DNA of 34,539 nt from a virus. Below, piece after piece: positions 7,802 to 34,539 of the stretch; the stretch's first letter is position 1, and every line of letters begins with the position of its first letter. The position numbers and the translations under genes are program-made. Location of the stretch: UHGV virus genome UHGV-2132316; one strand, 5' to 3'. The notes under the pieces are model-generated. The model was not told the DNA's origin, made no database searches, and was given only the letters and a program-made list of their open reading frames with translations.

Positions 7802-8290
7802 ATGATGATGATCTACGGCATGTTTGTTTTTGAGCTGCGCACGCTGCCGCATCAGCAGTTACAGCAAAACAAAAGCTGGCGGCATGTGAAAAATGAACGC
7901 GTTAACCGTTCAGCAAGCTGGCAGTATATCGGTGCAGGTGATGATCGCATCGTTCTTTCTGGTGTGCTTTATCCTGAAATTACAGGTGGCGAAGTGTCGC
8001 TGTCGCTGCTGACCACGCAGGCGTATACAGGACGACCCTGGCCTTTGATTGATGGCGTCGGGCAGATTTACGGCATGTATGTCCTGACCGGAACGAATAC
8101 GACCCGTTCCGAGTTTGATCGCTACGGTAAGGCGAAAAAGATAGAATTTTCACTGACCCTTGAACGCTGTGATGAGGATTTGCGGGAGCGCCTGCAATCC
8201 TCATCGTTCAGTGATATGCTGTCCGGCTTCAAAGATAAGGTGACATCATCTCTTAACAGCGCGGCCAGTTCAGTTAAAGGGCTGTTCTGA
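7802..8290 (+). CDS. U: Tail protein gpU-like
   Basis: Start placed at ATG 7802 (GAGGAG RBS 8 nt upstream; track start 7796 is only 2 nt from the RBS); P2-U-like sequence. Confidence 0.85.
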   Translation: MMMIYGMFVFELRTLPHQQLQQNKSWRHVKNERVNRSASWQYIGAGDDRIVLSGVLYPEITGGEVSLSLLTTQAYTGRPWPLIDGVGQIYGMYVLTGTNTTRSEFDRYGKAKKIEFSLTLERCDEDLRERLQSSSFSDMLSGFKDKVTSSLNSAASSVKGLF

Positions 8291-8296
8291 TTTAAC

Positions 8297-8337
8297 ACAA
8301 AAACCGCTAATGGTCAGATTAGCGGTTATTTTGTTTT
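8297..8337. terminator. Bidirectional rho-independent terminator between convergent U and invertase genes (stem accgctaat/attagcggt, loop ggtcag, A-run on one side and T-run on the other)
   Basis: Perfect 9-bp stem read directly; the invertase stop codon lies within the 3' arm. Confidence 0.7.
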
Positions 8338-8913
8338 CTGACTCTTCTCTATTGTTCCGCTTGATTCTCCTGCGGGGTGGTAACGATAAATCGTCGATGT
8401 ACCAATGCCGTAAATTATTGCCAGTTGTTTTCTGTCGTGACCGTTTTTAATCAGCCTTGCTATTTGCTCATGCTGTTCTTTTGTCAGCTTCGGTCGACGT
8501 CCGCCTGTGCGCCCCCGTGCGCGCGCTGCCGCCAGTCCGGCCAGTGTACGTTCAACAATTAATTCACGTTCCATTTCAGCCAGGGCACCCATCACGTGGA
8601 AGAAAAAACGCCCCATTGGAGAAGATGTATCTATGCTGTCGGTCAGACTGCGAAAATTAATCCCTCGCTCCCGTAGTTCTCCGACGAGAGAAATCAGATG
8701 TTTCATGCTTCGCCCAAGGCGATCCAGTTTCCAGACAACCAGCGTGTCACCTTTTTGAAGCCGCTTTAAAGCGCGTTTTAATCCCGGTCGGTCTGTCTTT
8801 GTCCCGCTTAATTTATCTTCAAATATTTGTTCACATCCTGCACAAACAAGAGCGTTTCGTTGCAGGTCTGTATTCTGGTCATTTGTTGATACCCTTACAT
8901 AACCAATCAGCAC
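8326..8913 (-). CDS. Serine-recombinase DNA invertase of the Hin/Gin/Cin/Pin family; start at GTG 8913 (GGGAG RBS), track ORF starts at an upstream TTG
   Basis: LIGYVRVSTNDQNTDLQRNAL...GDTLVVWKLDRLGRSMKHL... near-identical in the catalytic domain to remembered Pin; C-terminal HTH region. Confidence 0.92.
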   Translation of the reverse strand: MLIGYVRVSTNDQNTDLQRNALVCAGCEQIFEDKLSGTKTDRPGLKRALKRLQKGDTLVVWKLDRLGRSMKHLISLVGELRERGINFRSLTDSIDTSSPMGRFFFHVMGALAEMERELIVERTLAGLAAARARGRTGGRRPKLTKEQHEQIARLIKNGHDRKQLAIIYGIGTSTIYRYHPAGESSGTIEKSQKTK

Positions 8914-8967
8914 ACTGAATCTCCCGTCCAAAAGCGCAAATCATGCCATGCAGGCCGGAAACGGCCA

Positions 8968-8993
8968 TTATCTAAAACCTCGGTTTACAGGAA
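8968..8993. other. gix/hix-like 26-bp recombination site (left): TTATCTAAAACC-TC-GGTTTACAGGAA
   Basis: Matches the Gin/Hin/Cin/Pin crossover-site consensus; contains the in-frame stop TAA (8973-8975) that closes the silent cassette frame on the outside. Confidence 0.8.
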
Positions 8994-9980
8994 ACGGTAA
9001 ACAGGGCTGGTAACGCCGTGCAAAAAAATGGCGATACCTTGTCCGGTGGGCTTAATTTTGAAAACGACTCAATCCTTGCCTGGATTCGAAATACTGACTG
9101 GGCAAAGATTGGTTTTAAAAATGATGCCGATAGCGATACTGATTCATACATGTGGTTTGAAACAGGCGACAACGGCAATGAATATTTCAAATGGAGAAGT
9201 AAACAAAGCACCACAACAAAAGACCTGATGAATCTTAAATGGGATGCTTTGTCTGTTCTTGTTAAAGCCCTTTTCAGCAGTGAAGTAAAAATATCGACAG
9301 TCAATGCACTGAGGATATTTAATTCATCTTTTGGTGCCATTTTTCGCCGTTCTGAAGAATGCCTGCATATCATCCCTACACGAGAGAATGAGGGAGAAAA
9401 TGGTGATATAGGGCCATTACGCCCCTTTACGATTAACCTTAGAACTGGTCGGATAAGCATGGGGCATGGTCTTGATGTTACAGGGGATATATTTGCAAAC
9501 CGTTTTGCAATTAACAGTAGTACCGGCATGTGGATTCATATGCGTGACCAGAATGTTATTTGGGGACGCAATGCGGTATCCACCGATGGTGCGCAGGCAT
9601 TACTTCGTCAGGACCACGCTGATCGCAAATTTATGATTGGTGGACTGGGGAATAAGCAATTTGGCATCTACATGATTAATAACTCAAGGACAGCCAATGG
9701 TACCGATGGTCAGGCGTACATGGATAATAACGGGAACTGGCTTTGCGGCTCGCAAGTTATTCCCGGCAACTATGGCAATTTTGATTCACGTTATGTGAGA
9801 GATGTCCGACTTGGCACACGTGTTGTTCAGACTATGCAAAAAGGCGTGATGTATGAGAAATCAGGTCATGCAATTACGGGGCTTGGCATTGTCGGTGAAG
9901 TTGATGGCGATGATCCGGCAGTATTCAGACCAATACAAAAATACATCAATGGCACATGGTATAACGTCGCACAGGTGTAA
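8976..9980 (+). CDS. Silent alternative tail-fibre C-terminal (receptor-binding) cassette; no own start, becomes fused to the constant part of H after inversion
   Basis: Frame is open from 8976 through the gix site (NLGLQETVNRAGNAVQKNGDTLSGG...); ends ...YINGTWYNVAQV, parallel to the end of H (...QYCINGTWYNAGSI). Confidence 0.8.
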   Translation, partial: NLGLQETVNRAGNAVQKNGDTLSGGLNFENDSILAWIRNTDWAKIGFKNDADSDTDSYMWFETGDNGNEYFKWRSKQSTTTKDLMNLKWDALSVLVKALFSSEVKISTVNALRIFNSSFGAIFRRSEECLHIIPTRENEGENGDIGPLRPFTINLRTGRISMGHGLDVTGDIFANRFAINSSTGMWIHMRDQNVIWGRNAVSTDGAQALLRQDHADRKFMIGGLGNKQFGIYMINNSRTANGTDGQAYMDNNGNWLCGSQVIPGNYGNFDSRYVRDVRLGTRVVQTMQKGVMYEKSGHAITGLGIVGEVDGDDPAVFRPIQKYINGTWYNVAQV

Positions 9981-9983
9981 TTT

Positions 9984-10511
9984 ATGCAGCATTTAAAAAA
10001 TATTAAGTCTGGAAATCCAAAAACAAAAGAACAATATCAGCTAACAAAGAATTTTGATGTTATCTGGTTATGGTCCGAAGACGGAAAAAACTGGTATGAG
10101 GAAGTGAAAAACTTTCAGCCAGACACAATAAAGATTGTTTACGATGCAAATAATATTATTGTCGCCATCACCAAAGATGCCTCCACGCTTAACCCTGAAG
10201 GTTATAGCGTCGTTGAGGTTCCTGATATTACAGCTAATCGTCGTGCTGATGATTCCGGTAAGTGGATGTTTAAGGACGGAGCTGTGGTTAAACGGATTTA
10301 TACGGCAGACGAGCAACAACAACAGGCCGAATCACAAAAGGCCGCGTTACTTTCCGAAGCAGAAAACGTTATTCAGCCACTGGAACGCGCTGTCAGGCTG
10401 AATATGGCGACGGATGAGGAACGCGCACGACTGGAGTCATGGGAACGCTATAGTGTTCTGGTCAGCCGTGTGGATACGGCAAATCCTGAATGGCCACAAA
10501 AGCCTGAATAA
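9984..10511 (+). CDS. Alternative tail-fibre assembly chaperone (Tfa, gpG/Mu U'-like), silent orientation
   Basis: 175 aa; N-terminus [24 protein letters not shown]... nearly identical to the active gpG N-terminus while the C-terminus differs, as expected for cognate chaperones. Confidence 0.85.
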
Positions 10512-10515
10512 AAAT

Positions 10516-10536
10516 TAAGGCCCGATAGCGGGCCTT
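10516..10536. terminator. Bidirectional terminator hairpin (aaggcccg-atag-cgggcctt) between the two convergent chaperone genes
   Basis: Perfect 8-bp stem read directly, flanked by A/T runs. Confidence 0.6.
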
Positions 10537-10539
10537 GTT

Positions 10540-11073
10540 TCATTCTGGTTGTTCTGGAAACGTTACTGGCAGGCTGGAGGTGTCTGTGGATTCGACCTTC
10601 TGCGCATAGAGCATCCACTCGGTTAATTTTTGTTTATTCTCGTCGGAAATGATACCCAGCCGTAGCTGTGAGTCCCATAGCTGGGTTTTATCCCTGACAA
10701 GTTGCAACAGGCTTTGCTTTTCATTCTCTGCCTGCTGCCTCTGTTCCTCCTCGGTATAAGTTCGCTTTATCACTACGCCATCTTTGAACATCCATTTACC
10801 CGAAATATCAGCCCGGCGATTTGCTGTAATATCAGGTAATTCAACGACGCTTGCGCCTTCCGGATTAATTGCTGAAACATCCTTTTCAATACAAATAATA
10901 ACGCCGTTATGGTCATAGACCATTTTCAAAGTGTCTGGCTGGAAATTCTTTTGTTCCTCATACCAGTTTTTTCCATCATCTGAATAAAGCCATTTGATGT
11001 TAAATTGCTTTGTTAGCTGGTATTGCTCTTTTGTTTTAGGGTTGCCAGCAGTAATATTTTTTAAGTGCATCAT
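10540..11073 (-). CDS. G: Tail-fibre assembly chaperone gpG (currently expressed orientation)
   Basis: 177 aa directly downstream of H; Tfa-family sequence. Confidence 0.85.
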   Translation of the reverse strand: MMHLKNITAGNPKTKEQYQLTKQFNIKWLYSDDGKNWYEEQKNFQPDTLKMVYDHNGVIICIEKDVSAINPEGASVVELPDITANRRADISGKWMFKDGVVIKRTYTEEEQRQQAENEKQSLLQLVRDKTQLWDSQLRLGIISDENKQKLTEWMLYAQKVESTDTSSLPVTFPEQPE

Positions 11074-11075
11074 AA

Positions 11076-13310
11076 TTAAATACTCCCCGCGTTATACCAC
11101 GTTCCATTAATGCAATACTGAATTGGCCTTGCCTGAGTTGTATCAATTAATTCATCACGGTTTCCGTTAACTGAACCAGTAACGACATAACCTGACCTGT
11201 CAGACCAGCCAGGACCATTCCATGTCTGAACAGATGACAGACCGCCAAGGCGAATACCTGTAATAAACCTTGAGTTACATTCTGCCTGCGTATATGCACC
11301 AACATCTCCCGCAGAGGGTTTGCGTGTTGTGGTGTAAAACTCTGACCAGTTAGCTTCAAAGCCATAACCATCACGCGCTGAACGATAAAAGATACCGCCA
11401 TTTCTGTAATTCACGCGGAACTGTACAGCAGGGCAACTCCCCGCATTCATATTAAAGTGGAGGATTAATGTCGATGCGCCACTGATATCTGCATCATAAA
11501 CGCCGCTATTCCAGTTCCAGCCAACAGCTTTATCATTTGCGACCCTGCGTCCTGTTTGCCCTAAAGCAAATGCAGGCTGCTGGTTTTTCGTGTTGTAGTC
11601 TCGTCGCCAGCCAGGAGCGTAAGCATCACCATGATTAATATAAGTGAATTGAGCGTTAGTGATTCCGCCACCGCTGGACGTGCTCGGCGTGGTAACGCGT
11701 ATGGTCATTGCGCCGCGGGTGCCAATAACTTCCACCACAGCACCTGCAAGACAAATATTTCCGCAACCTGTATCTGTAATGACCTTATTATTTGCATAAG
11801 CCCATGAGCCTTTGCACATCCAGTAAGGATGGTTAAATGCCCCCTGACTCTCCAGCCACGAAATGAATTGTGCGGTTGTCCAGACCTGACTATCGCCACC
11901 AATATTCAGCCATGCGCTATATGCGCGGCAGGCCCCAATATTTTTGGTGAAGGTATCTTTCCCCGGAATATCTGCGCCGTTCTGGTTTTTCTGTAATGCG
12001 CCAGAAGCCTGATTTACCGTTTCCTGTAAACCGAGGTATTCGATAACAGCGGCAACGGTCGATTTCGCAAGAATATCCCGCCCGACTTTTGTCAGGGTTG
12101 CCAGGCTGGCGACATCATTCCCCGTAAAATACGGAAACTTGTCTGCCGCAGTAGCAAGCCCGGCCAGCGCCGTCAGGGTGGCATCTTTCGGTTGCTTACC
12201 CGCAAGCGCTTTAGTCATGGTGGTCGCAAAATTCGGGTCGTTTCCCAGCGCCGCCGCTAACTCGTTCAGCGTATTCAGTGCGTCAGGTGACGAATCTACA
12301 AGGGCGGCAATCGCAGCCATAACGAAAGCCGTGCTTGCGATTTGGGTATTATTCGTTCCCTGTCGCGCAGTTGGCGTTGTTGGCGTTCCGGTCAACGCAG
12401 GACTGTTTAAGGGCGCTTTCTTGTTCGTTTCATCCATTACCGCCTTAACCGCTTTCGATGTCGCGGCCAGTGTTTCAGACGTGCTGTTGGTGGCACTACT
12501 GAGCTGGACTATCCCTTTTTGTGCCGTCGTGGCGTCCTGAGCGGTATATTTTGCGTTAGCAAGGTCATACGCGGCCTTTACTGCTTTCGGCGTTGCAGCC
12601 TGCGTTTCAGACGTGCTGTTGGTGGCGCTACTGAGCTGGACAAGGCCTTTTCGTGCCGTCGTGGCGTCCTGAGCGGTATATTTTCCGTTAGCTAGGTCAT
12701 ACGCGGCCTTAACCGCTTTCGGCGTTGCAGCCTGCGTTTCAGACACGCTGTTAGTGGCGCTACTGAGTTGAACAAAGCCTTTTGCGGTCAGCGAGGCGTC
12801 CGGGTGACGTCGTGACTGTTCATGCTCTTTCAGTTTGTCATCCACGTAATCCACTGTGGCCATCACCATGGTGTTATCCACGGTAAGCGCCACGGTGGCC
12901 GTGCTGGATACGGTCAGAATGGTGCGAAATGTTTGTGCACGTCCGGACCCTTCGGCAACGGTTGGTTTGTAACTTTCGGCAGTATTGCCCACCGCGATTA
13001 AATCGCCGTGCTCATCAAATACACCAATTTCCCGGATCCAGAATCCGCCCGTTTCAGGAGGAATAACCAGCTCCGCAATAATGCGGTTCTGATGTGTTGC
13101 GTCCAGGATGACGCGATTAACAGTGTGTCGCCACACCTCATGCACCAGACGGGTCTGCTTACTGTCTGGTGTGGGCAACGTGCCGCCACCGTCGCCCACG
13201 GCCATATGAGTCAGGCGGACAGGCTTACCATCTGGCGCGGCTGCCTGAGCTAATTTTTTGGCACCTGTATCGGTGATAACGGTTTTAAATTTTCGTGTTG
13301 TGGTACTCAT
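11076..13310 (-). CDS. H: Tail fibre protein gpH; N-terminal ~425 aa constant region, C-terminal ~320 aa exchangeable by inversion
   Basis: 744 aa; N-terminal half matches remembered P2 H (..RRHPDASLTAKGF.., LNSPALTGTPTTPTA..); gix site inside the gene. Confidence 0.92.
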   Translation of the reverse strand: MSTTTRKFKTVITDTGAKKLAQAAAPDGKPVRLTHMAVGDGGGTLPTPDSKQTRLVHEVWRHTVNRVILDATHQNRIIAELVIPPETGGFWIREIGVFDEHGDLIAVGNTAESYKPTVAEGSGRAQTFRTILTVSSTATVALTVDNTMVMATVDYVDDKLKEHEQSRRHPDASLTAKGFVQLSSATNSVSETQAATPKAVKAAYDLANGKYTAQDATTARKGLVQLSSATNSTSETQAATPKAVKAAYDLANAKYTAQDATTAQKGIVQLSSATNSTSETLAATSKAVKAVMDETNKKAPLNSPALTGTPTTPTARQGTNNTQIASTAFVMAAIAALVDSSPDALNTLNELAAALGNDPNFATTMTKALAGKQPKDATLTALAGLATAADKFPYFTGNDVASLATLTKVGRDILAKSTVAAVIEYLGLQETVNQASGALQKNQNGADIPGKDTFTKNIGACRAYSAWLNIGGDSQVWTTAQFISWLESQGAFNHPYWMCKGSWAYANNKVITDTGCGNICLAGAVVEVIGTRGAMTIRVTTPSTSSGGGITNAQFTYINHGDAYAPGWRRDYNTKNQQPAFALGQTGRRVANDKAVGWNWNSGVYDADISGASTLILHFNMNAGSCPAVQFRVNYRNGGIFYRSARDGYGFEANWSEFYTTTRKPSAGDVGAYTQAECNSRFITGIRLGGLSSVQTWNGPGWSDRSGYVVTGSVNGNRDELIDTTQARPIQYCINGTWYNAGSI
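12021..12046. other. gix/hix-like 26-bp recombination site (right), inverted copy inside gene H: TTCCTGTAAACC-GA-GGTATTCGATAA
   Basis: 24/26 identical to the reverse complement of the left site; central dinucleotides complementary (TC vs GA); encodes ...IEYLGLQE... in H. Confidence 0.8.
12430..12800 (-). repeat. Tandem 132-bp (44-codon) direct repeats, about 2.8 copies, inside H (peptide unit ...VQLSSATNSTSETQAATPKAVKAAYDLANxKYTAQDATTAxKG)
   Basis: Period measured between 'gtttcagac' occurrences at 12472, 12604 and 12736. Confidence 0.8.
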
Positions 13311-13312
13311 GC

Positions 13313-13843
13313 TTAATCGTCCGGATAAATGGTAATAACTTCACCGTCATAAGTTGCCGCCGCTGCAAAAATATCCCCCGGAATTTCCTGAATGATATTC
13401 AGCCCTGTCATGTGGCGGCTGACCGGACGGGCATCAGCAATCAACCGCTCCATTTCCAGATACATTTCCTCCGTCACGCCACTGTCCAGTGTGCCGACTT
13501 CAACGGTAAATGTTCCCGGTTCTCCGCCGAACTCCCACCACTCAGACACGCGAATGAGGTATCCCAGCGGCTCAATGGCCCTGCGCAGTGCGCTGATGGT
13601 CCCTTTGTGTCGGTGTATCAGCCATGCATCACGAATCACCTGTCGTTTTGTCTCTTCCGGCCAGTTGCGATCCCAACGGTCAACGAAAAATGCCCAGGCG
13701 AGATAAGGCAGCAGGTGCACCGGGCAGGTGTCCGGCGACCACAGCGTGTTGAGGTCTACCGGGATGTCTGTAATGCGCGTTCCGACAGCTTCGGCACAAC
13801 GCATGAAACTGCTGGCTGATGGTGGTAACAGTGAATTACTCAT
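13313..13843 (-). CDS. I: Baseplate assembly protein gpI-like
   Basis: Start chosen at MSNSLLPP... (176 aa); P2-I-like; overlaps the J 3' end by 8 nt. Confidence 0.85.
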   Translation of the reverse strand: MSNSLLPPSASSFMRCAEAVGTRITDIPVDLNTLWSPDTCPVHLLPYLAWAFFVDRWDRNWPEETKRQVIRDAWLIHRHKGTISALRRAIEPLGYLIRVSEWWEFGGEPGTFTVEVGTLDSGVTEEMYLEMERLIADARPVSRHMTGLNIIQEIPGDIFAAAATYDGEVITIYPDD

Positions 13844-25012: not shown

Positions 25013-25651
25013 TTACCTTCCCCAGTCCCGATCAGGAAGTCTATCTTTGAAGGCAAGGTAATCGTAAAACTCACGAGTATGGGAAAAAATACATTCGCAC
25101 ATTGCAGCGCCAGCGTTTGAAAGAGCCAATTTCAACATGCCGTCAGGTTTAGGATTGCTCACCAAATTTTCATAAACTTGAGCCTGATCTAAACCGTGGA
25201 CACATAACAAAAGCGAAGACTCAAAGGTAACAACCGCATCCAGTAAACGCTGATGAATCACGGAAAGGGTCGGTTGGTTTGCAACAATTGCAGTCAAACA
25301 GCGGCGATCACCAGTCATAAAAATGGCTTCTGGGTTCTCTATGCACGAGGCAAGCAATAGCTGTTCGCCTACATCAATTCCGGGCACACTCCCCAAAAGC
25401 TCAATAAGCTGGGAGTCCTGAACTTCCGGGATATCCTGTACAGATTCAATGAAGGCTCCCACTTGCTCGTAAACAACTTGGCTACCACACTTCCTGATTG
25501 CTTTATCAGGATTTTTCGGCAGAAGCTGAAAACGAGCAGCAGGGTTAATGAAGATCTGTTCGGGGGGTTGATTAAAAACCACTGGCAGTTGTGATAACAG
25601 ATTGCACTGGGCCAGCTTCAAAATGACATCATTATCAGAAAGAACAATCAC
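25013..25651 (-). CDS. Hypothetical PIN-like (putative nuclease) protein, second gene of the cargo cassette
   Basis: 212 aa; GTG start with GGGGA RBS; N-terminus IVLSDNDVILKL and ...AIFMTGDRRCL... resemble PIN-domain acidic motifs; assignment by eye only. Confidence 0.55.
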   Translation of the reverse strand: MIVLSDNDVILKLAQCNLLSQLPVVFNQPPEQIFINPAARFQLLPKNPDKAIRKCGSQVVYEQVGAFIESVQDIPEVQDSQLIELLGSVPGIDVGEQLLLASCIENPEAIFMTGDRRCLTAIVANQPTLSVIHQRLLDAVVTFESSLLLCVHGLDQAQVYENLVSNPKPDGMLKLALSNAGAAMCECIFSHTREFYDYLAFKDRLPDRDWGR

Positions 25652-25654
25652 TTA

Positions 25655-26653
25655 TTATTCCCCGATTAGATTTTCTAAAACCTTAAGATCATCTTCGTGG
25701 ATATTTTCTAAATCCATCCCGCTTTTCATCATGGCCCTCACAAAATCCTGATCTGAGTCTTCACCAGCGCAGAGTGATTTAACAGCGTTAACAGCAACGC
25801 CCCAGCAGTTCTGCGCGAAACCATAATTTAAAGCGATGTGAGTTGGGTCAATGTGATTATCACTTCCAAACTTTTGAGCTGCGCGAGCCAAGCCTGGCCC
25901 GTTCAACCTGCCAGCGGTAGGAACGATACGTAAAGACTTCTGCCCCGAAATGACCTGGAAGGCGAATTCGTTAGCTTCTTTCTCTACGTTGTCCGTCGAA
26001 GCATTCTCAATTTTTGCGTCAATATGGCACTGCCCGTTTTCTGCGTTCAGATGCCCTCTGGCGATATGGCCTAACTCATGCGCGAGATCAAACAGCATAT
26101 AGCCGTATTTCTGAGGCTGAGTAAGAACAATCACCGGGCGCCCGTGACTCATTAGCGCCAGTCCGGCCATTTTTTTTGCAGCTTGTGGGAAGCATTTTAG
26201 ATAAACAACAGGAATGCCAATCGAATGACAGTATGTTACCAGGCTATCTAGCGACACCCATGATTCCTTAGTAAGGATCTGGGTTCTTATCGCCAAAGGA
26301 TCCAGCACTGCACTAGCATCGTAAGGGACTTTGAAATTAGACGCGACAATACCGGCCGCAGTATAGGCAACAGCAGTAGCGATATCTAAATCGTTCTCGG
26401 CTACATTTTGGCGATGTTTATATTTATGGTTTCCACCAAAATTAAAGCATACCCCTTCGCTACCATCTTTCAGGCTATCCGGGAGAATGCTAAACATACG
26501 CGCAAGGTGCAGGCACGCATACTGGCGCCCTGATGGGGTGTCAGCAAGCTTCTCATCCCACCAATCAGGCAACAACCTGCGGATGTAAGAGAGATTAAAC
26601 CCGGCCCGGCCGAATTTAGAATATATCTGACTCATCTGATTATGGTTCGTCAT
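25655..26653 (-). CDS. ImmA/IrrE-family (DUF955/COG2856) HEXXH metallopeptidase-domain protein with extra N- and C-terminal regions
   Basis: 332 aa; LAHELGHIARGH followed by EKEANEFAFQ is the ImmA/IrrE signature; strong AGGAGG RBS. Confidence 0.75.
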   Translation of the reverse strand: MTNHNQMSQIYSKFGRAGFNLSYIRRLLPDWWDEKLADTPSGRQYACLHLARMFSILPDSLKDGSEGVCFNFGGNHKYKHRQNVAENDLDIATAVAYTAAGIVASNFKVPYDASAVLDPLAIRTQILTKESWVSLDSLVTYCHSIGIPVVYLKCFPQAAKKMAGLALMSHGRPVIVLTQPQKYGYMLFDLAHELGHIARGHLNAENGQCHIDAKIENASTDNVEKEANEFAFQVISGQKSLRIVPTAGRLNGPGLARAAQKFGSDNHIDPTHIALNYGFAQNCWGVAVNAVKSLCAGEDSDQDFVRAMMKSGMDLENIHEDDLKVLENLIGE

Positions 26654-26811: not shown

Positions 26812-29199
26812 TTAGTTCCGCGAAAATGCCGCTTTCATCCTATTCACAAGATCGCTTGTTTTTTGCTTCGCCGCCATCACTTGCGACGGCAGCCTCTCCA
26901 GCCCCGACGCGGCCCGGTTGCGCGATACCAGCCGCCCGTCCTGCACGGTCATAACAAGATCGCCGCACGCCACTGACGCACCGGCCATCATCGATCTGAC
27001 CATTCCGGCGCTGGCATCAATCCCACGTAGCGCCAGCAGTTCACTGATCTGCTGCTCTTTCACGGATAACCCGTCCCCGTCTTTCCGTTCCGGTGGCCGT
27101 TTTTTACGCTTACTGCGCACATCGTCACTAAGCCGCTGCGCCAGTTCTCGCTTTTCCTGCCGGGAAAGCGCATCAAAATTCACCGTCACGCCCTCAGCTG
27201 GTGCAGTCATTTCTGACTGCCCTTTAGCTTCGCTGGCGGCATGTTCAACACCGTCAGCACCTGCCGCGGGATCCCGCGTACAGTTATTGACAGAACTCCG
27301 AGGGGCGGCGCTGCCGCCTGAAAAACCAACGTCAACGGCCACACCGTCAGCGCTCTGGCGCTTCGGCACGATTTTGTATTGAGTGGTGCGGGTGAAGATC
27401 AAAGAGTCATTGCCCGTGATCGGGCAGTAAATACCAGTGATTCGCTGGACGTTATCGCCGTAGGCGTTGCCATTTTCAGTGATTTCATAGTTCAGACGGA
27501 TGCGCAGTTTATCGCGCTCAACCAACGGGCCACCCTGGGCTAATACGTAGTTATCCCATTCACCACCGTTAGCAGCCTGCCGGGCGGTTTCCAGTTCAGG
27601 GTGTAACACCAGTTCGCGATCGCCCAAGCGGCGAAGTTCGCGATATACCGTGACCGGCGCACCGCCGATCTGCTGAAACTGGCGAATAGCCCAGCGCGAT
27701 GCCCACGCGCTAACACGGAGTGACATTTCTTTCAGGTCTTCCCCGGTTTCGTCGTCCTTCTCACCATCCAGCGCGAAGCCGTCGATATTCTTCGAAATGT
27801 ATTTCGCTATGTAGCCGGTTGCGCTGCCGTGGGCATCGTCGATCGGCACAACCTGAAAGCGGTTTTCCTGCGCTCCCGGTTCGTTGCCGTCTTCTTTCAG
27901 GGCATATTTACGGAAGATTTCGCGCGCCTGCTCGACGCATTCCGGGCGCATAAAAAGAAGTAAATGCCAGTGTGGCGTTGCATCGTGGTGCGGTTCGACC
28001 ACGCGGAAACCAAAGACGCGGATCCCTTTTCTCTTCCACGCTGCGCGGGTTCTCGCCCAGACTTTGCAAAGATATTGCTGCGTCTCGCGCGGCGACGCGC
28101 CACAGTATTTATTATTGCGGCGCCCGTTATGCTGCATGGAGTGGTAACGGGAAGGTGCTGTCAGCGTGTAGAAGTCACCGGCCAGCCCTTCCAGCTTCGC
28201 CAGATCTTCAAATCCGCGCATTCTCGTCATGAGTTCGCGGCGACGGTTGGCCGGATTGGCAACACTACCGGCGACTTTATCGATCAGTGAAATGCGCTCG
28301 CCCGTGTCCTGGTCTTCCAGCTCCATAGCCTTAAGGTATTCACGGTTAGCCTTTTTCTGGGCCAGCCATTCCGTAAGGCACGGGGCGCTACTGTATGGGG
28401 AAGATTTTTTCTGGACGTATCCCGCCGCGATCATCAAGTGCTCACGCCATCGGGCATGGATACGGCGCAGGCGGTTTAACCACCATTGCGGTGACTCAAG
28501 ACGGAGAACCGCGCGTAACGCGTCCTCCGCTTCAAGTTCTTCATTGCAATACGCTGTCCAACCTGGGATCGGCGTTTTTAGATGCACCGCCAGCGACGCA
28601 ATACGGCCATAGCCAGAAAGCGCCGCGAACTCAGGATCGCCGGTGCGCGCCAACTGGTAATCGGACTCGCGTATAAACTCGCTCGTAAAGATATCGGCAA
28701 GCGTATAAGCCAGTCTTTTTAACTCTTTTTTCCCTGCCCAAAGCATACGGAAAAGCTGATCGCGGATTGGCAGCAGAATGCCAGGCATCACAGTGTCAGG
28801 CTGGTAAACACTGTTCACGCTATCAATACGTGTTAATACGTGGCGCTCAAAGGTATTAACCAGCCAGTGATCTGCCGCTTTGCGGTCTTTCGCGTCCAGT
28901 GCATCCAGCTTCGCGGCAAAGTGGCGGCGGATATACTGCGGAAGGGAAGCCAGACGGCGACGCAGCAGCTTGCTGCGCTCCGACTTTTCGTCCTCCGCTA
29001 CCAGTTCACTGAACGCAATATGCTTGCGGGTGCCGTCCGGCGTGAGATAGTCGAAACCATCCAGCCCCGTCGCTACATCAACGCCAATCGGCTGGTATGG
29101 TTTGTTCCCGCCATAAGCGTAAGGGGTAGCATTATCAGTGCTACCCGAATACGGTGGAGGTGGAGAAGGGGCGCGACGGCCACGGGTTGCCGTAGTCAT
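26812..29199 (-). CDS. A: Replication initiation endonuclease gpA-like (rolling-circle Rep)
   Basis: 795 aa; YTLTAPSRYH and GYIAKYISKNIDG motifs characteristic of P2 A-type initiators. Confidence 0.9.
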   Translation of the reverse strand: MTTATRGRRAPSPPPPYSGSTDNATPYAYGGNKPYQPIGVDVATGLDGFDYLTPDGTRKHIAFSELVAEDEKSERSKLLRRRLASLPQYIRRHFAAKLDALDAKDRKAADHWLVNTFERHVLTRIDSVNSVYQPDTVMPGILLPIRDQLFRMLWAGKKELKRLAYTLADIFTSEFIRESDYQLARTGDPEFAALSGYGRIASLAVHLKTPIPGWTAYCNEELEAEDALRAVLRLESPQWWLNRLRRIHARWREHLMIAAGYVQKKSSPYSSAPCLTEWLAQKKANREYLKAMELEDQDTGERISLIDKVAGSVANPANRRRELMTRMRGFEDLAKLEGLAGDFYTLTAPSRYHSMQHNGRRNNKYCGASPRETQQYLCKVWARTRAAWKRKGIRVFGFRVVEPHHDATPHWHLLLFMRPECVEQAREIFRKYALKEDGNEPGAQENRFQVVPIDDAHGSATGYIAKYISKNIDGFALDGEKDDETGEDLKEMSLRVSAWASRWAIRQFQQIGGAPVTVYRELRRLGDRELVLHPELETARQAANGGEWDNYVLAQGGPLVERDKLRIRLNYEITENGNAYGDNVQRITGIYCPITGNDSLIFTRTTQYKIVPKRQSADGVAVDVGFSGGSAAPRSSVNNCTRDPAAGADGVEHAASEAKGQSEMTAPAEGVTVNFDALSRQEKRELAQRLSDDVRSKRKKRPPERKDGDGLSVKEQQISELLALRGIDASAGMVRSMMAGASVACGDLVMTVQDGRLVSRNRAASGLERLPSQVMAAKQKTSDLVNRMKAAFSRN

Positions 29200-30110
29200 T
29201 GCGCGATCTCCATGTAGGCTTTTAAGAAAGTAGCGGCTGCATAGATATTTACGGCGTTTCCGCTGGCGCGTAGTTTTCCCACTCTGGAGGGAACCCCATC
29301 AACCAGAGGCTTAAGGCCGGGTTTAACTGGCCTCCACTTTCCATCTCTGCAAAAGAGCCAGTCAGCAGATCCCCAGAATCCGTTAACCGGGCCGGGCCTG
29401 CTATCTGCGCTGTCACATCCAGCGTATCCGTTGACAGCTTCCCGTGCCGCATCCTTCCCCCCTGATACCCGCCCTTTCCATCCCTCGCCGTAGGGGTGGG
29501 CCAGCCCGCAAGACAAGCAAAGTCCTGTAAGTTCGACTGCCGACCAGCCAGCTTCTTGGCGATCACCTTCTCGGCATCCTGATAAGCGTTCTTCGTATTG
29601 CTCGCGGTTGGAGTCGGCCAGCCAGTAAGTACGCTCCCGGATGTGCGGCGCACCGACGCCCGCAGACGGAAACGCCGACGCCCCGAAGGCATAGCCCAAA
29701 CTTTCCATGTCTGTTTGTACAAGGTCGATCCAGACTTCTGCATCTTTGCTTGAAGACTGTTCGCCAAATATAACGACAGGGCGTTGCTGGCCTGCAAGCC
29801 AATGAACGGCGGGCCATAGGTGCCGCTCATCATCAAATTGTTTTCCTTCGCCTGCCTGGCTGAAAGGTTGGCATGGGCAACTTGCTGTCCATACTGGGCG
29901 GTCATCCGGCCATCCTGCAACGCGCAAAGCCCGGGGCCAGCCTCCAAAACCTGCAAACAGGTGGACTTGAGAGAATCCTTTAATGTCATTTGGGGTTACA
30001 TCCTCAACGGAACGAGTATCAACAACGCCGGAAGCGATAAGCCCGGCATCAATGAGGTTGCGCAGGTATTGCGCGGCGAAGGGGTCGATTTCGTTGTAGT
30101 AGGCGGTCAC
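29196..30110 (-). CDS. DNA cytosine-5 methyltransferase-like protein (compact, atypical)
   Basis: LFAGFGGWPRAL (motif I-like), CPCQPFSQAG (motif IV), LGY...GVGAPHIRERTYW (motif VII/VIII), SGNAVNIYAAATFL (motif X). Confidence 0.7.
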   Translation of the reverse strand: MTAYYNEIDPFAAQYLRNLIDAGLIASGVVDTRSVEDVTPNDIKGFSQVHLFAGFGGWPRALRVAGWPDDRPVWTASCPCQPFSQAGEGKQFDDERHLWPAVHWLAGQQRPVVIFGEQSSSKDAEVWIDLVQTDMESLGYAFGASAFPSAGVGAPHIRERTYWLADSNREQYEERLSGCREGDRQEAGWSAVELTGLCLSCGLAHPYGEGWKGRVSGGKDAAREAVNGYAGCDSADSRPGPVNGFWGSADWLFCRDGKWRPVKPGLKPLVDGVPSRVGKLRASGNAVNIYAAATFLKAYMEIAQ

Positions 30111-30427
30111 TGCTGCCCCTCCGCCTTTCGGCTACACCGATCGATTACTTGGTACTGAATTTCTAAACCCAGCTTTTCAGCAAGCGCGTGCTCTGCCTTA
30201 GCTCCCGCAGACTGCTGCCAGCCATCCAGCAAGAAGATCCCGTCAGCACAACGCAACATGGCGAAGCAAATATCCATGTATTCCGCCTGCTCTAATCCGT
30301 CCGGCAAAATCGCCGGATTAAGGGCAACGTTTCCGCGTCGCACTACGTGCCCAGCTGCACGGTTAAAAGCCTGCCGATTGAATCCAGGCAAACCGCTCAT
30401 CGGGCCAGCGATATAGATTTTTGCCAT
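30107..30427 (-). CDS. Hypothetical protein, DUF4406 / nucleoside 2-deoxyribosyltransferase-like
   Basis: 106 aa; MAKIYIAGPMSG N-terminus and GW..S.GA..E..LA..LG.. pattern; start and stop overlap neighbours. Confidence 0.5.
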   Translation of the reverse strand: MAKIYIAGPMSGLPGFNRQAFNRAAGHVVRRGNVALNPAILPDGLEQAEYMDICFAMLRCADGIFLLDGWQQSAGAKAEHALAEKLGLEIQYQVIDRCSRKAEGQQ

Positions 30428-31398
30428 TAAAAAGCCTCCAGATCGCCAAACGTGCCCGCCGCAACCATCGCGTTGTAAGTCGCATCACCCATCACGGCGC
30501 CACAATCAGGGCAACCGCCGCCGTAACGCCCGCAGCAGTCGCAGACAGGCAGCACGCCGATCACTTCTTTGGCCTTCTGTCGGTTGTTTTTGTCAGTGCT
30601 GACGGAACGTTGCACGCTGATTTTGTGCATCTTGAAGGGCTGATAAATCGCGCGGGTGGCTTCGGTGTCGCTGTTGGAAATGACGACCTTCACGCCATGC
30701 TTACGGTTAACTTCCAGCAGTGCCTGGACTAACTGGCGGTGGTTGTCTTCCGTGAATGGTTCGGTGTGGTATTGGGTAAAATCGGCTGTTTTGCTTTCAG
30801 GCAGGTAAGGCGGATCGCAGTAAACGAGAACATCGCCACCCGTGACGACCTGTAGAGAACGCTGGAACGGCGCGCACAGAAATATTGCCTTTGTATCGTT
30901 GGCCTTTTCGGCAAACAGGCGGATTTCATTTTCAGGAAAGTAGACGCTCTTATACTTGCCAAACGGCACGTTAAAGCCAGTCTTCCGGCTGTATCGGCAT
31001 AAGCCGTTATAACCGTGGCGATTCAGATACAGGAATTGAGCAGCGCGCATAATGCACGCCATTTCAGCGCCATAACGCAACCCACCGCTTTTGACCGTAC
31101 CCACCTGCTTATTGAACGCGGCGCGGACTTCGTTGTATCCCTGCGGGCTGTTCTTACTGTTGAACAGTTCACGGGCCGCATCGATCACTAAGTCCGGGTA
31201 ACGGGTGACTTCCCGATACAGGTTAATAAGATCCGGGTTGATATCAGCCAGCACATAGCGGCGGTATTCAGTCGCCAGAAATACCGATGCGCCGCCTACG
31301 AACGGTTCGATCAGGCAGTCGGCTTTAGGAAGATGCGGCAGCAGGTCAGGGAGGACACGGGTTTTTCCCCCTGCCCATTTGATGAACGGGCGGATCAT
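30427..31398 (-). CDS. Dam-like N6-adenine DNA methyltransferase with a Cys-rich C-terminal extension
   Basis: PFIKWAGGK and DPPY motifs; high similarity to remembered E. coli Dam; C-terminal CDCCGRYGGGCPDCG; start at ATG 31398, track ORF is longer. Confidence 0.9.
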   Translation of the reverse strand: MIRPFIKWAGGKTRVLPDLLPHLPKADCLIEPFVGGASVFLATEYRRYVLADINPDLINLYREVTRYPDLVIDAARELFNSKNSPQGYNEVRAAFNKQVGTVKSGGLRYGAEMACIMRAAQFLYLNRHGYNGLCRYSRKTGFNVPFGKYKSVYFPENEIRLFAEKANDTKAIFLCAPFQRSLQVVTGGDVLVYCDPPYLPESKTADFTQYHTEPFTEDNHRQLVQALLEVNRKHGVKVVISNSDTEATRAIYQPFKMHKISVQRSVSTDKNNRQKAKEVIGVLPVCDCCGRYGGGCPDCGAVMGDATYNAMVAAGTFGDLEAF

Positions 31399-31399
31399 T

Positions 31400-31612
31400 T
31401 TACAGGACTCCGTAATGGGAAGCTGGAATAGAAGGGCGCTGCAATTCTTCAATGCAGTGCTGGCGCAGATTGCTTATAAAATTGGTTGCTACAGACCCAC
31501 TGGCAGAAAGGGTTAACTCACCATCACGGCGGGTTTTAATGGTTAACCCTTCATTTTCGATAGCAGGTAAAAGAACATGCAAAATGAAACTATATTGTTC
31601 ACGTCTGGTCAT
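31400..31612 (-). CDS. Hypothetical early protein (70 aa)
   Basis: ATG with GGAGG RBS; tightly packed in the early operon; no recognisable motif. Confidence 0.5.
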   Translation of the reverse strand: MTRREQYSFILHVLLPAIENEGLTIKTRRDGELTLSASGSVATNFISNLRQHCIEELQRPSIPASHYGVL

Positions 31613-33558: not shown

Positions 33559-34539
33559 ATGTCGATTAAGAAGCTCGAAGGTGGTCAATATGAAGTAGAC
33601 GTATGGCCGCGCGGACGTAACGGAAAACGTATCCGCAGGCGATTTGAGAAGAAACAAGAGGCGGTTCTTTTTGAGCGTTATGTATTAGCCAACGCCGACA
33701 AAAAAGAGTGGCTGGGCGCGAGCGTTGACCGTCGCACCTTAAGCGAGTTGTTAGATACCTGGTGGCTGCTGTACGGACAGACTCAGGAAAATGGCGAGAT
33801 TGAAAAGCGGCACCTGAATAAAACAATCAGGGCACTGGGCGATCCAGCCGTTAACCGACTGAACAAGCGAATGATTGCTCAGCACCGAGGCCAACGGCTG
33901 GAAGACGGTATCAGCGCTGCAACGATCAACCGGGATATTTACCGCTTATCCGGGATGTTCAGCACGTTGATAAAACTGGAAGAGTTCAGGAAGGAAAACC
34001 CCTGCAAGGGTCTAGAACCATTGAAAGAAGCGCCGCCAGCTATGACCTATCTAGCAAAATCAGAGATCAGCAGATTGCTGGATACTCTGACCGGCGACGA
34101 TCGACGTGTAGCACTGCTATGCCTCAGCACCGGCGCACGCTGGGGCGAAGGCAGCACGCTGCGAGGTGAGCAGGTTAATCACGGGCGCGTAACGTTCCTT
34201 AAGACCAAAAACGGAAAAAAGCGCACCGTTCCGATATCGGAAGAACTGGAGAAAGAGATCAAGACCAGCGACACCGGGCCACTGTTCAAAGTTGACTATG
34301 AAAACTTCTGCGAACGACTCAAACAGGTTAAGCCCGATTTACCACGTGGGCAGGCCACACACGTTCTTCGGCATACTTTCGCAAGCTGGTTCATGATGAA
34401 TGGAGGAAACATTATTGCGTTACAGCAAATTCTGGGGCACGCCAGCATACAACAGACGATGGTTTATGCTCACCTTGCCCCCGATTACCTGCAACACGCG
34501 GTAACGTTAAACCCTCTCGGCGGTGGGCTGGCGGTGTGA
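33559..34539 (+). CDS. int: Tyrosine integrase (P2 Int-like); stop codon is the last three bases of the window
   Basis: 326 aa; ...LCLSTGARWGEA..., HVLRHTFAS, ...MVYAHLAPDYL... motifs of P2-type integrases. Confidence 0.92.
   Translation: MSIKKLEGGQYEVDVWPRGRNGKRIRRRFEKKQEAVLFERYVLANADKKEWLGASVDRRTLSELLDTWWLLYGQTQENGEIEKRHLNKTIRALGDPAVNRLNKRMIAQHRGQRLEDGISAATINRDIYRLSGMFSTLIKLEEFRKENPCKGLEPLKEAPPAMTYLAKSEISRLLDTLTGDDRRVALLCLSTGARWGEGSTLRGEQVNHGRVTFLKTKNGKKRTVPISEELEKEIKTSDTGPLFKVDYENFCERLKQVKPDLPRGQATHVLRHTFASWFMMNGGNIIALQQILGHASIQQTMVYAHLAPDYLQHAVTLNPLGGGLAV

Follow-up and report, generated by a model that had tools for sequence, protein, structure and literature searches.

The DNA analysed here, the UHGV virus genome UHGV-2132316, is a stretch of 34,539 nucleotides, referred to below as the window. 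It starts in the host gene fieF, ends in a phage integrase gene and covers essentially an entire P2-like prophage. The evidence suggests, with a probability of about 0.93, that this Xuanwuvirus-type Escherichia coli prophage carries a two-state host-range switch of the Mu G type, and the switch is apparently active. A serine DNA invertase gene lies beside two inverted crossover sites, one of which is inside the gene for the tail-fibre protein H. The segment between the sites holds two alternative tail-fibre tips with their chaperones, and it is found in both orientations in natural genomes. The system is one that is already known from the G segment of Mu, the C segment of P1 and the P segment of e14, and it has been annotated in P2-like phages.

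Crossover sites, tail-fibre cassettes and the two orientations

The segment is bounded by two sites with the features of the Gin/Hin/Cin/Pin class, namely an inverted 26-bp pair with imperfect 12-bp half-sites and a common 2-bp core. The sites are TTATCTAAAACCTCGGTTTACAGGAA at 8968-8993 and TTCCTGTAAACCGAGGTATTCGATAA at 12021-12046, and they are reverse-complementary at 24 of 26 positions. The central dinucleotide is TC (8980-8981) in the site next to the invertase gene and GA (12033-12034) in the site within H, and it is non-palindromic. The Mu gix sequence, TTCCTGTAAACCGAGGTTTTGGATAA, which was located at both annotated boundaries of the G segment of phage Mu, differs from the first site at one position and from the second at two, and it had no matches in 100 shuffled sequences. 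The first-pass annotation, which was made from the window alone, had given the same two 26-mers at the same positions and had described them as gix-type sites with complementary central dinucleotides; both statements hold exactly.

The number of sites was also considered. No other 26-mer within nine mismatches of gix was found in the whole 34.5-kb window, and half-site-like 12-mers are scattered through it. A shufflon or other multiple-inversion system, such as Min of p15B or the three-repeat locus of enteropathogenic E. coli (EPEC), was rejected because more than two crossover sites are required for such a system and just two are present here.

The position of the second site within H would allow the C-terminal part of the fibre to be exchanged in frame. 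H is encoded at 11076-13310 on the minus strand and has 744 amino acids (aa), with a P2-type tail-collar N-terminus and three fibre repeats. The site spans codons 422-430 of H, and from residue 423 the protein reads ...IEYLGLQETVN.... The first-pass annotation was right to place the site inside H, although it gave the codon as about 425, and the crossover is actually in codon 426, between Leu426 and Gly427. At the other end of the segment, the frame of a silent, start-less cassette is ended on its upstream side by a stop codon, TAA at 8973-8975, that belongs to the outer half-site (...AII*NLGLQETVN...), and this had been proposed as well. The peptide ...LGLQETVN... is read in both H and the silent cassette, as expected for a shared junction.

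When the segment was flipped in silico at the central dinucleotides, an in-frame protein, H', of 758 aa replaced the 744-aa H. The junction is ...AVIEYLGLQETVNRAGNAVQKNGDTLSGG... in H' and ...AVIEYLGLQETVNQASGALQKNQNGAD... in H. The predicted in-frame exchange of the H C-terminus together with its chaperone is therefore borne out by the in silico inversion, and the predicted segment length of 3.05 kb agrees with the 3,053 bp between the crossover points. Taken together, the locus has the organization of the Mu G and P1 C segments, with a site in the fibre gene, two opposed C-terminal cassettes that each have a chaperone, and an in-frame swap. The features of the locus are listed in Table 1.

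Table 1. Features of the invertible locus, in order of position in the window
Feature	Position	Strand	Basis
Terminator-like hairpin, bidirectional, between tail gene U (+) and invertase gene (-)	8302..8327		Terminator scan of both strands; inverted repeat
Serine DNA invertase, 195 aa, GTG start, Gin-like mosaic	8326..8913	-	Pfam, PDB, alignments
Predicted recombinational enhancer (Fis sites) in 5' end of invertase gene	8818..8895	-	Homology and motif scan
Invertase-side crossover site, gix-like, 1 mismatch to Mu gix	8968..8993	-	Core 8980-8981
Silent start-less tail-fibre C-terminal cassette (Mu Sv / G(+) type)	8976..9980	+	Translation; Pfam Gp34_trimer
Invertible segment, 3,053 bp, homologous to Mu G and P1 C segments	8981..12033		Nucleotide identity, flipped genomes, breakpoints of isogenic pair
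Silent tail-fibre assembly chaperone (Mu U type)	9984..10511	+	Pfam Caudo_TAP 5e-38
Terminator-like hairpin, bidirectional, between convergent chaperone genes	10516..10537		Scan of both strands
Tail-fibre assembly chaperone of present orientation (Mu U' type)	10540..11073	-	Pfam Caudo_TAP 6e-37
Variable C-terminal part of H, present orientation (Mu Sv' / G(-) type), residues 427-744	11076..12033	-	96.8% aa identity to Mu Sv'
Crossover site in H, gix-like, 2 mismatches to Mu gix	12021..12046	+	Core 12033-12034, codon 426
Constant N-terminal part of H (P2 type), residues 1-426	12034..13310	-	Pfam Phage_tail_fib and three Phage_fiber_2

The segment is found in both orientations in natural genomes. 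A 4.2-kb locus, in the given form and in the form flipped in silico, was searched against 5,426 complete E. coli genomes, and 2,560 of these have at least a partial match to the locus. A single contiguous match was found in 89 genomes for the given form and in 66 for the flipped form. The assemblies of these 155 genomes are clean at the locus. Two comparisons come close to settling that the segment flips. In the first, the same prophage is present in an isogenic pair, made up of isolate 2022S01-140 and 2022S01-140-18, which was derived from it. Identical protein accessions are given in the two for the invertase and for each chaperone; the chaperones are exchanged in position and strand and the H proteins differ. 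Flipping 2022S01-140 in silico at the central dinucleotides produces the sequence of 2022S01-140-18, and over 10,195 bp the two have 0 mismatches.

The second comparison is with strain 81009, which has a prophage with an inverted segment; over 9 kb and 15 kb, the flanks of this prophage match the window at 99.98-99.99% identity. The flipped window is co-linear with the 81009 sequence over 27.4 kb with 26 differences, 24 of which are inside the 3-kb segment. Single-base gaps account for most of these 24, and there are 23 gaps in all. In every case that was compared, the outer half-sites remain with the flanks and the inner sequences travel with the segment.

The 81009 segment (NZ_CP021179, 15769-18824) was also examined for its annotation. 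Its cassettes are annotated in RefSeq as frameshifted pseudogenes because of the single-base gaps in the segment. These differences are probably consensus errors from a culture that contained both orientations, rather than real decay.

The constant part of H contains three tandem repeats of 132 nucleotides (nt), or 44 aa, at 12442-12837. They have 100, 89 and 61% identity and correspond to the Phage_fiber_2 repeats. With 744 aa, H is longer here than in 2022S01-140 (about 700 aa) and in phage 503458 (about 661 aa), and this variation in length between related prophages suggests that the copy number of the fibre-shaft repeat varies among them.

The invertase gene and its predicted enhancer

The enzyme belongs to the family of serine invertases, and its gene is outside the segment. 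It has a resolvase-type N-terminal catalytic domain and a C-terminal helix-turn-helix, matched by the Pfam families Resolvase (1.3e-50) and HTH_7 (9e-14), and its size is that of the class, which is around 190 aa. The best solved relative is Mu Gin (4m6f/3uj3), with an E value of about 1e-100. The description of the gene as a Gin/Pin-type serine invertase just outside the sites, which was made without database searches, is thus confirmed. PADLOC had no defence-system match for the invertase. The most likely start is the GTG at 8913, which aligns with the start of Mu gin and has a GGAG 7 nt upstream, rather than the TTG at 8931 that opens the mechanically called open reading frame. A gap of 54 nt separates this start from the 8968-8993 site, measured to the outer edge.

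The residues known to be important for catalysis and for regulation by Fis are conserved. Overall the protein is 81% identical to Gin, 78% to PinE of e14 and 72% to Cin of P1. Ser9 and Met114, the latter in the E-helix, are invariant in an alignment of the four enzymes. In Gin, Ser9 is the catalytic nucleophile, and the change of Met114 to Val frees the enzyme from Fis (PMC3575834). Q150, R153 and L154 are also invariant among the four. They are equivalent to Gln151, Arg154 and Leu155 of Hin, which contact Fis and are specific to invertases (PMC3798978).

The invertase gene is a mosaic in sequence, with a catalytic domain that is nearly that of Gin and a divergent DNA-binding domain. Within residues 1-119 the sole difference from Gin is Arg38Lys. 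In 60-nt blocks, the gene is 88-98% identical to Mu gin for nt 1-360, and then the identity drops to 36-58%. The two parts meet near 8555 (gene nt ~360), where the catalytic domain gives way to the DNA-binding domain. The 3' part of the gene, encoding the DNA-binding domain, is close to neither Cin nor PinE.

A recombinational enhancer is predicted in the 5' end of the invertase gene, as in the related systems. Its placement is based on the curated P1 annotation and on the geometry of Hin. Nucleotides 13-108 of the gene are identical to Mu gin, and the same stretch aligns without gaps with nt 19-90 of P1 cin, a stretch listed in the P1 record as the enhancer for inversion by Cin. A motif scan found two Fis-like 15-mers. 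The one at 8866-8880 (gene nt 34-48) fits the strict Fis consensus, and the one at 8818-8832 (gene nt 82-96) is AT-rich and near the consensus. Their centres are separated by 48 bp, and the nearer centre is 108 bp away from that of the crossover site beside the gene. In the Hin enhancer, the spacing of the two Fis sites is 47 bp and their distance from hixL is about 100 bp (PMC3798978). At the sequence level, then, the window has a pair of Fis-like sites with the spacing (47-48 bp) and the nearness to one crossover site that are typical of such an enhancer.

It is conceivable, although doubtful, that the enzyme is a natural chimera with properties of its own. Here a Gin-identical catalytic domain, together with the enhancer, the site and a G-type segment, would have been joined at about codon 120 to a DNA-binding domain of a different lineage. 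The site preference of the chimera might be shifted or broader, and the enzyme might act in trans on the other homologous invertible segments found in many E. coli genomes, so that the host-range states of several prophages would be linked. That Gin, Cin, Pin and Hin can complement one another has long been known. Even if the idea of a chimera is true, it would extend this known cross-complementation and would add no new principle.

Single E. coli genomes have up to 9-11 places homologous to the locus. Strain RM8843-C1 has one copy in each orientation, at different chromosomal positions. Several related invertases and segments therefore share one cell, and the enzymes might act in trans.

Proposed mechanism of the switch and alternative explanations

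The known mechanism of Gin and Hin suggests how the switch would operate. Invertase dimers would bind the two sites, and two Fis dimers would bind the predicted enhancer near the start of the invertase gene. All three DNA segments would meet at a branch of supercoiled DNA, forming an invertasome. Ser9 of each subunit would cut the 2-bp core with a 2-nt stagger, one pair of subunits would turn through 180 degrees, and the strands would be religated. The non-palindromic core would force inversion instead of deletion. By inversion of the 3,053-bp segment, H with its S'-type tip (744 aa) and U'-type chaperone would be replaced by H' with an S-type tip (758 aa) and a U-type chaperone. Slow flipping in the lysogen would lead to an induced lysate with two fibre tips, each with the matching chaperone, and hence to two receptor specificities. 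By analogy with G(+) and G(-) of Mu, the two tips would recognise different lipopolysaccharide cores.

Several observations count against this model. All of the evidence for flipping comes from relatives of the prophage in the window. A simple sigma-70 scan of 8200-13500 found no promoter-like site upstream of the invertase gene or the silent cassette, which bears on expression of the invertase; four sites were found in the region compared with 7.6 in shuffled sequences, fewer than expected. Because the DNA-binding domain of the invertase diverges from that of Gin, its binding to these sites is deduced from the behaviour of the family and from the natural inversions. The point of exchange can be resolved no more finely than a 25-nt stretch that is identical in the two repeat arms.

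The first two of these observations would fit a frozen switch, in which all of the parts are intact but this prophage no longer flips, and the differences in orientation are old events. This is improbable. The invertase, both sites, the cassettes and the chaperones are all intact, and an essentially identical prophage is in the other state in 81009. The clinical isolate 2022S01-140 and its derivative differ by this inversion only. Furthermore, the concentration of 24 of the 26 differences from 81009 in the segment is expected of a culture with mixed orientations.

The resolution of the exchange point is relevant to a second and still less probable explanation, RecA-dependent recombination between the inverted repeats without involvement of the invertase. 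The inverted repeat reaches inward to 61 nt at 79% identity, and its arms share a perfectly identical core of 25 nt (8977-9001 and 12013-12037), within which the exchange would have to lie. However, a match of 25 nt is about the shortest that allows RecA-dependent exchange, and the position of the core is that of a canonical gix site, with an intact Gin-like enzyme and a conserved enhancer next to it. The two orientations have similar frequencies across genomes, which fits an efficient dedicated system.

Assembly artefacts around the inverted repeat are the least likely source of the orientation differences in public genomes: the 23 single-base gaps of the 81009 assembly show that the region can assemble imperfectly, but the repeat of just 26-61 nt is easily spanned by reads, 66 and 89 independent complete genomes align cleanly and contiguously in one state or the other, and full-length fusion proteins are annotated in RefSeq for each state. 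An invertase-driven, two-state switch is therefore the preferred explanation.

Relationship to known systems and prophage context

The segment is directly homologous to the classical invertible segments, in agreement with the likeness to Mu G, P1 C and e14 P that had been noted at first. It is 91-96% identical at the nucleotide level to the segments of Mu, D108, SfMu and P88 and 88-92% identical to those of P1 and P7, so that the annotated G and C segments fall at 88-96%. The alignments to the classical segments begin and stop at the crossover sites.

The closest correspondence in layout is with Mu, and the plus strand of the window is co-linear with that of Mu. Both have the constant part of the fibre, a site, the Sv-U and U'-Sv' cassettes, a second site, and an invertase gene transcribed away from the segment. 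The variable part of H, the tip expressed in the present orientation, is 96.8% identical in amino acid sequence to Mu Sv', while the silent cassette is 73.3% identical to Mu Sv. The silent chaperone is 95.4% identical to Mu U, and the currently expressed chaperone is 97.7% identical to Mu U'. In contrast, the constant part of H and Mu Sc are unrelated (26.8%), and the sequence homologous to Mu reaches exactly as far as the outer edge of the site. Therefore, judging from the alignments, a P2-type fibre shaft carries a variable module of the Mu type, with the joint exactly at the site. Mu differs in other ways as well. It is a transposing phage with its own Sc, whereas the window contains a P2-like integrating prophage with a divergent invertase DNA-binding domain, and in the window the silent frame is closed by the TAA in the outer half-site.

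The C segments of P1 and P7 have homologous cassettes, sites with a 2-bp core, and an enhancer in the 5' end of cin. However, the P1 C segment is 4.2 kb long and has long inverted repeats, and cin points toward the segment, with cixL overlapping its 3' end. The invertase gene in the window points away from the segment, as Mu gin does and unlike P1 cin. The P segment of e14 has two fibre C-termini and two chaperones (stfP/tfaP and tfaE/stfE), and its invertase, PinE, is encoded beside it. The P segment is shorter, about 1.8 kb, and e14 is a defective lambdoid element with different cassettes. Flipping of the e14 P segment has been seen in cultures (PMC4272514).

Among P2-like phages, the Peduoviridae phages 503458 and 520873 of the genus Xuanwuvirus and phage P88 are about 93-95% identical to the window at the nucleotide level. 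The RefSeq record of phage 503458 has T, U, invertase, silent fibre, chaperone, chaperone, H, I, J and W in the same order as the window, and its annotation already includes "DNA invertase" and "tail fiber". In the window the genes neighbouring the switch are likewise those of P2 U, I and J. These relatives differ only by alleles, that is, in the length of H (the number of 132-nt repeats), in the cassettes and in the C-terminal tail of the invertase. The paper on P88 has no description of the inversion (PMC5285337). In the P2-like prophages of EPEC E2348/69, phase variation of invertible loci was found by sequencing and PCR (PMC4272514). One of the EPEC loci has three repeats and four states, compared with two sites and two states in the window, and the EPEC loci may correspond to this module.

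The analysis is of value mainly for annotation and practical work, and it opens no new biological question. Its two modest points are that the invertase is a mosaic and that a P2-type fibre has acquired a Mu-type module exactly at the crossover site, and both agree with long-standing views of the horizontal exchange of tail-fibre modules. In prophages of this kind, a "phage tail protein" pseudogene that lacks a start is not a sign of decay, because it forms the silent half of a switch that works. Assemblies show one of two coexisting states, and consensus errors are possible at such loci. Two receptor specificities would be present in lysates induced from such lysogens, and this matters for host-range tests and for the engineering of phages and tailocins.

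The remainder of the window has several other features. At its ends are the host gene fieF, for cation efflux, in 1-1400 and the phage tyrosine integrase gene at 33559-34539, and the prophage in 81009 has the same fieF-adjacent insertion. Gene D (1439-2569) is intact in the window and split in the 81009 annotation. Two cargo genes are found on the minus strand at 25013-26653, between the portal gene and the replication gene A. One encodes a 332-aa protein of the ImmA/IrrE type (Peptidase_M78), with weak PADLOC hits to PD-Lambda-2_B (9e-10), CapP and RmrA, and the other encodes a 212-aa protein with no family match. This cargo could be an anti-phage defence or regulatory module. The early region has two DNA methyltransferase genes on the minus strand, within 29196-30110 and 30427-31452; the types represented are a C5-cytosine methyltransferase and an orphan, Dam-like N6-adenine methyltransferase of the D12 class.

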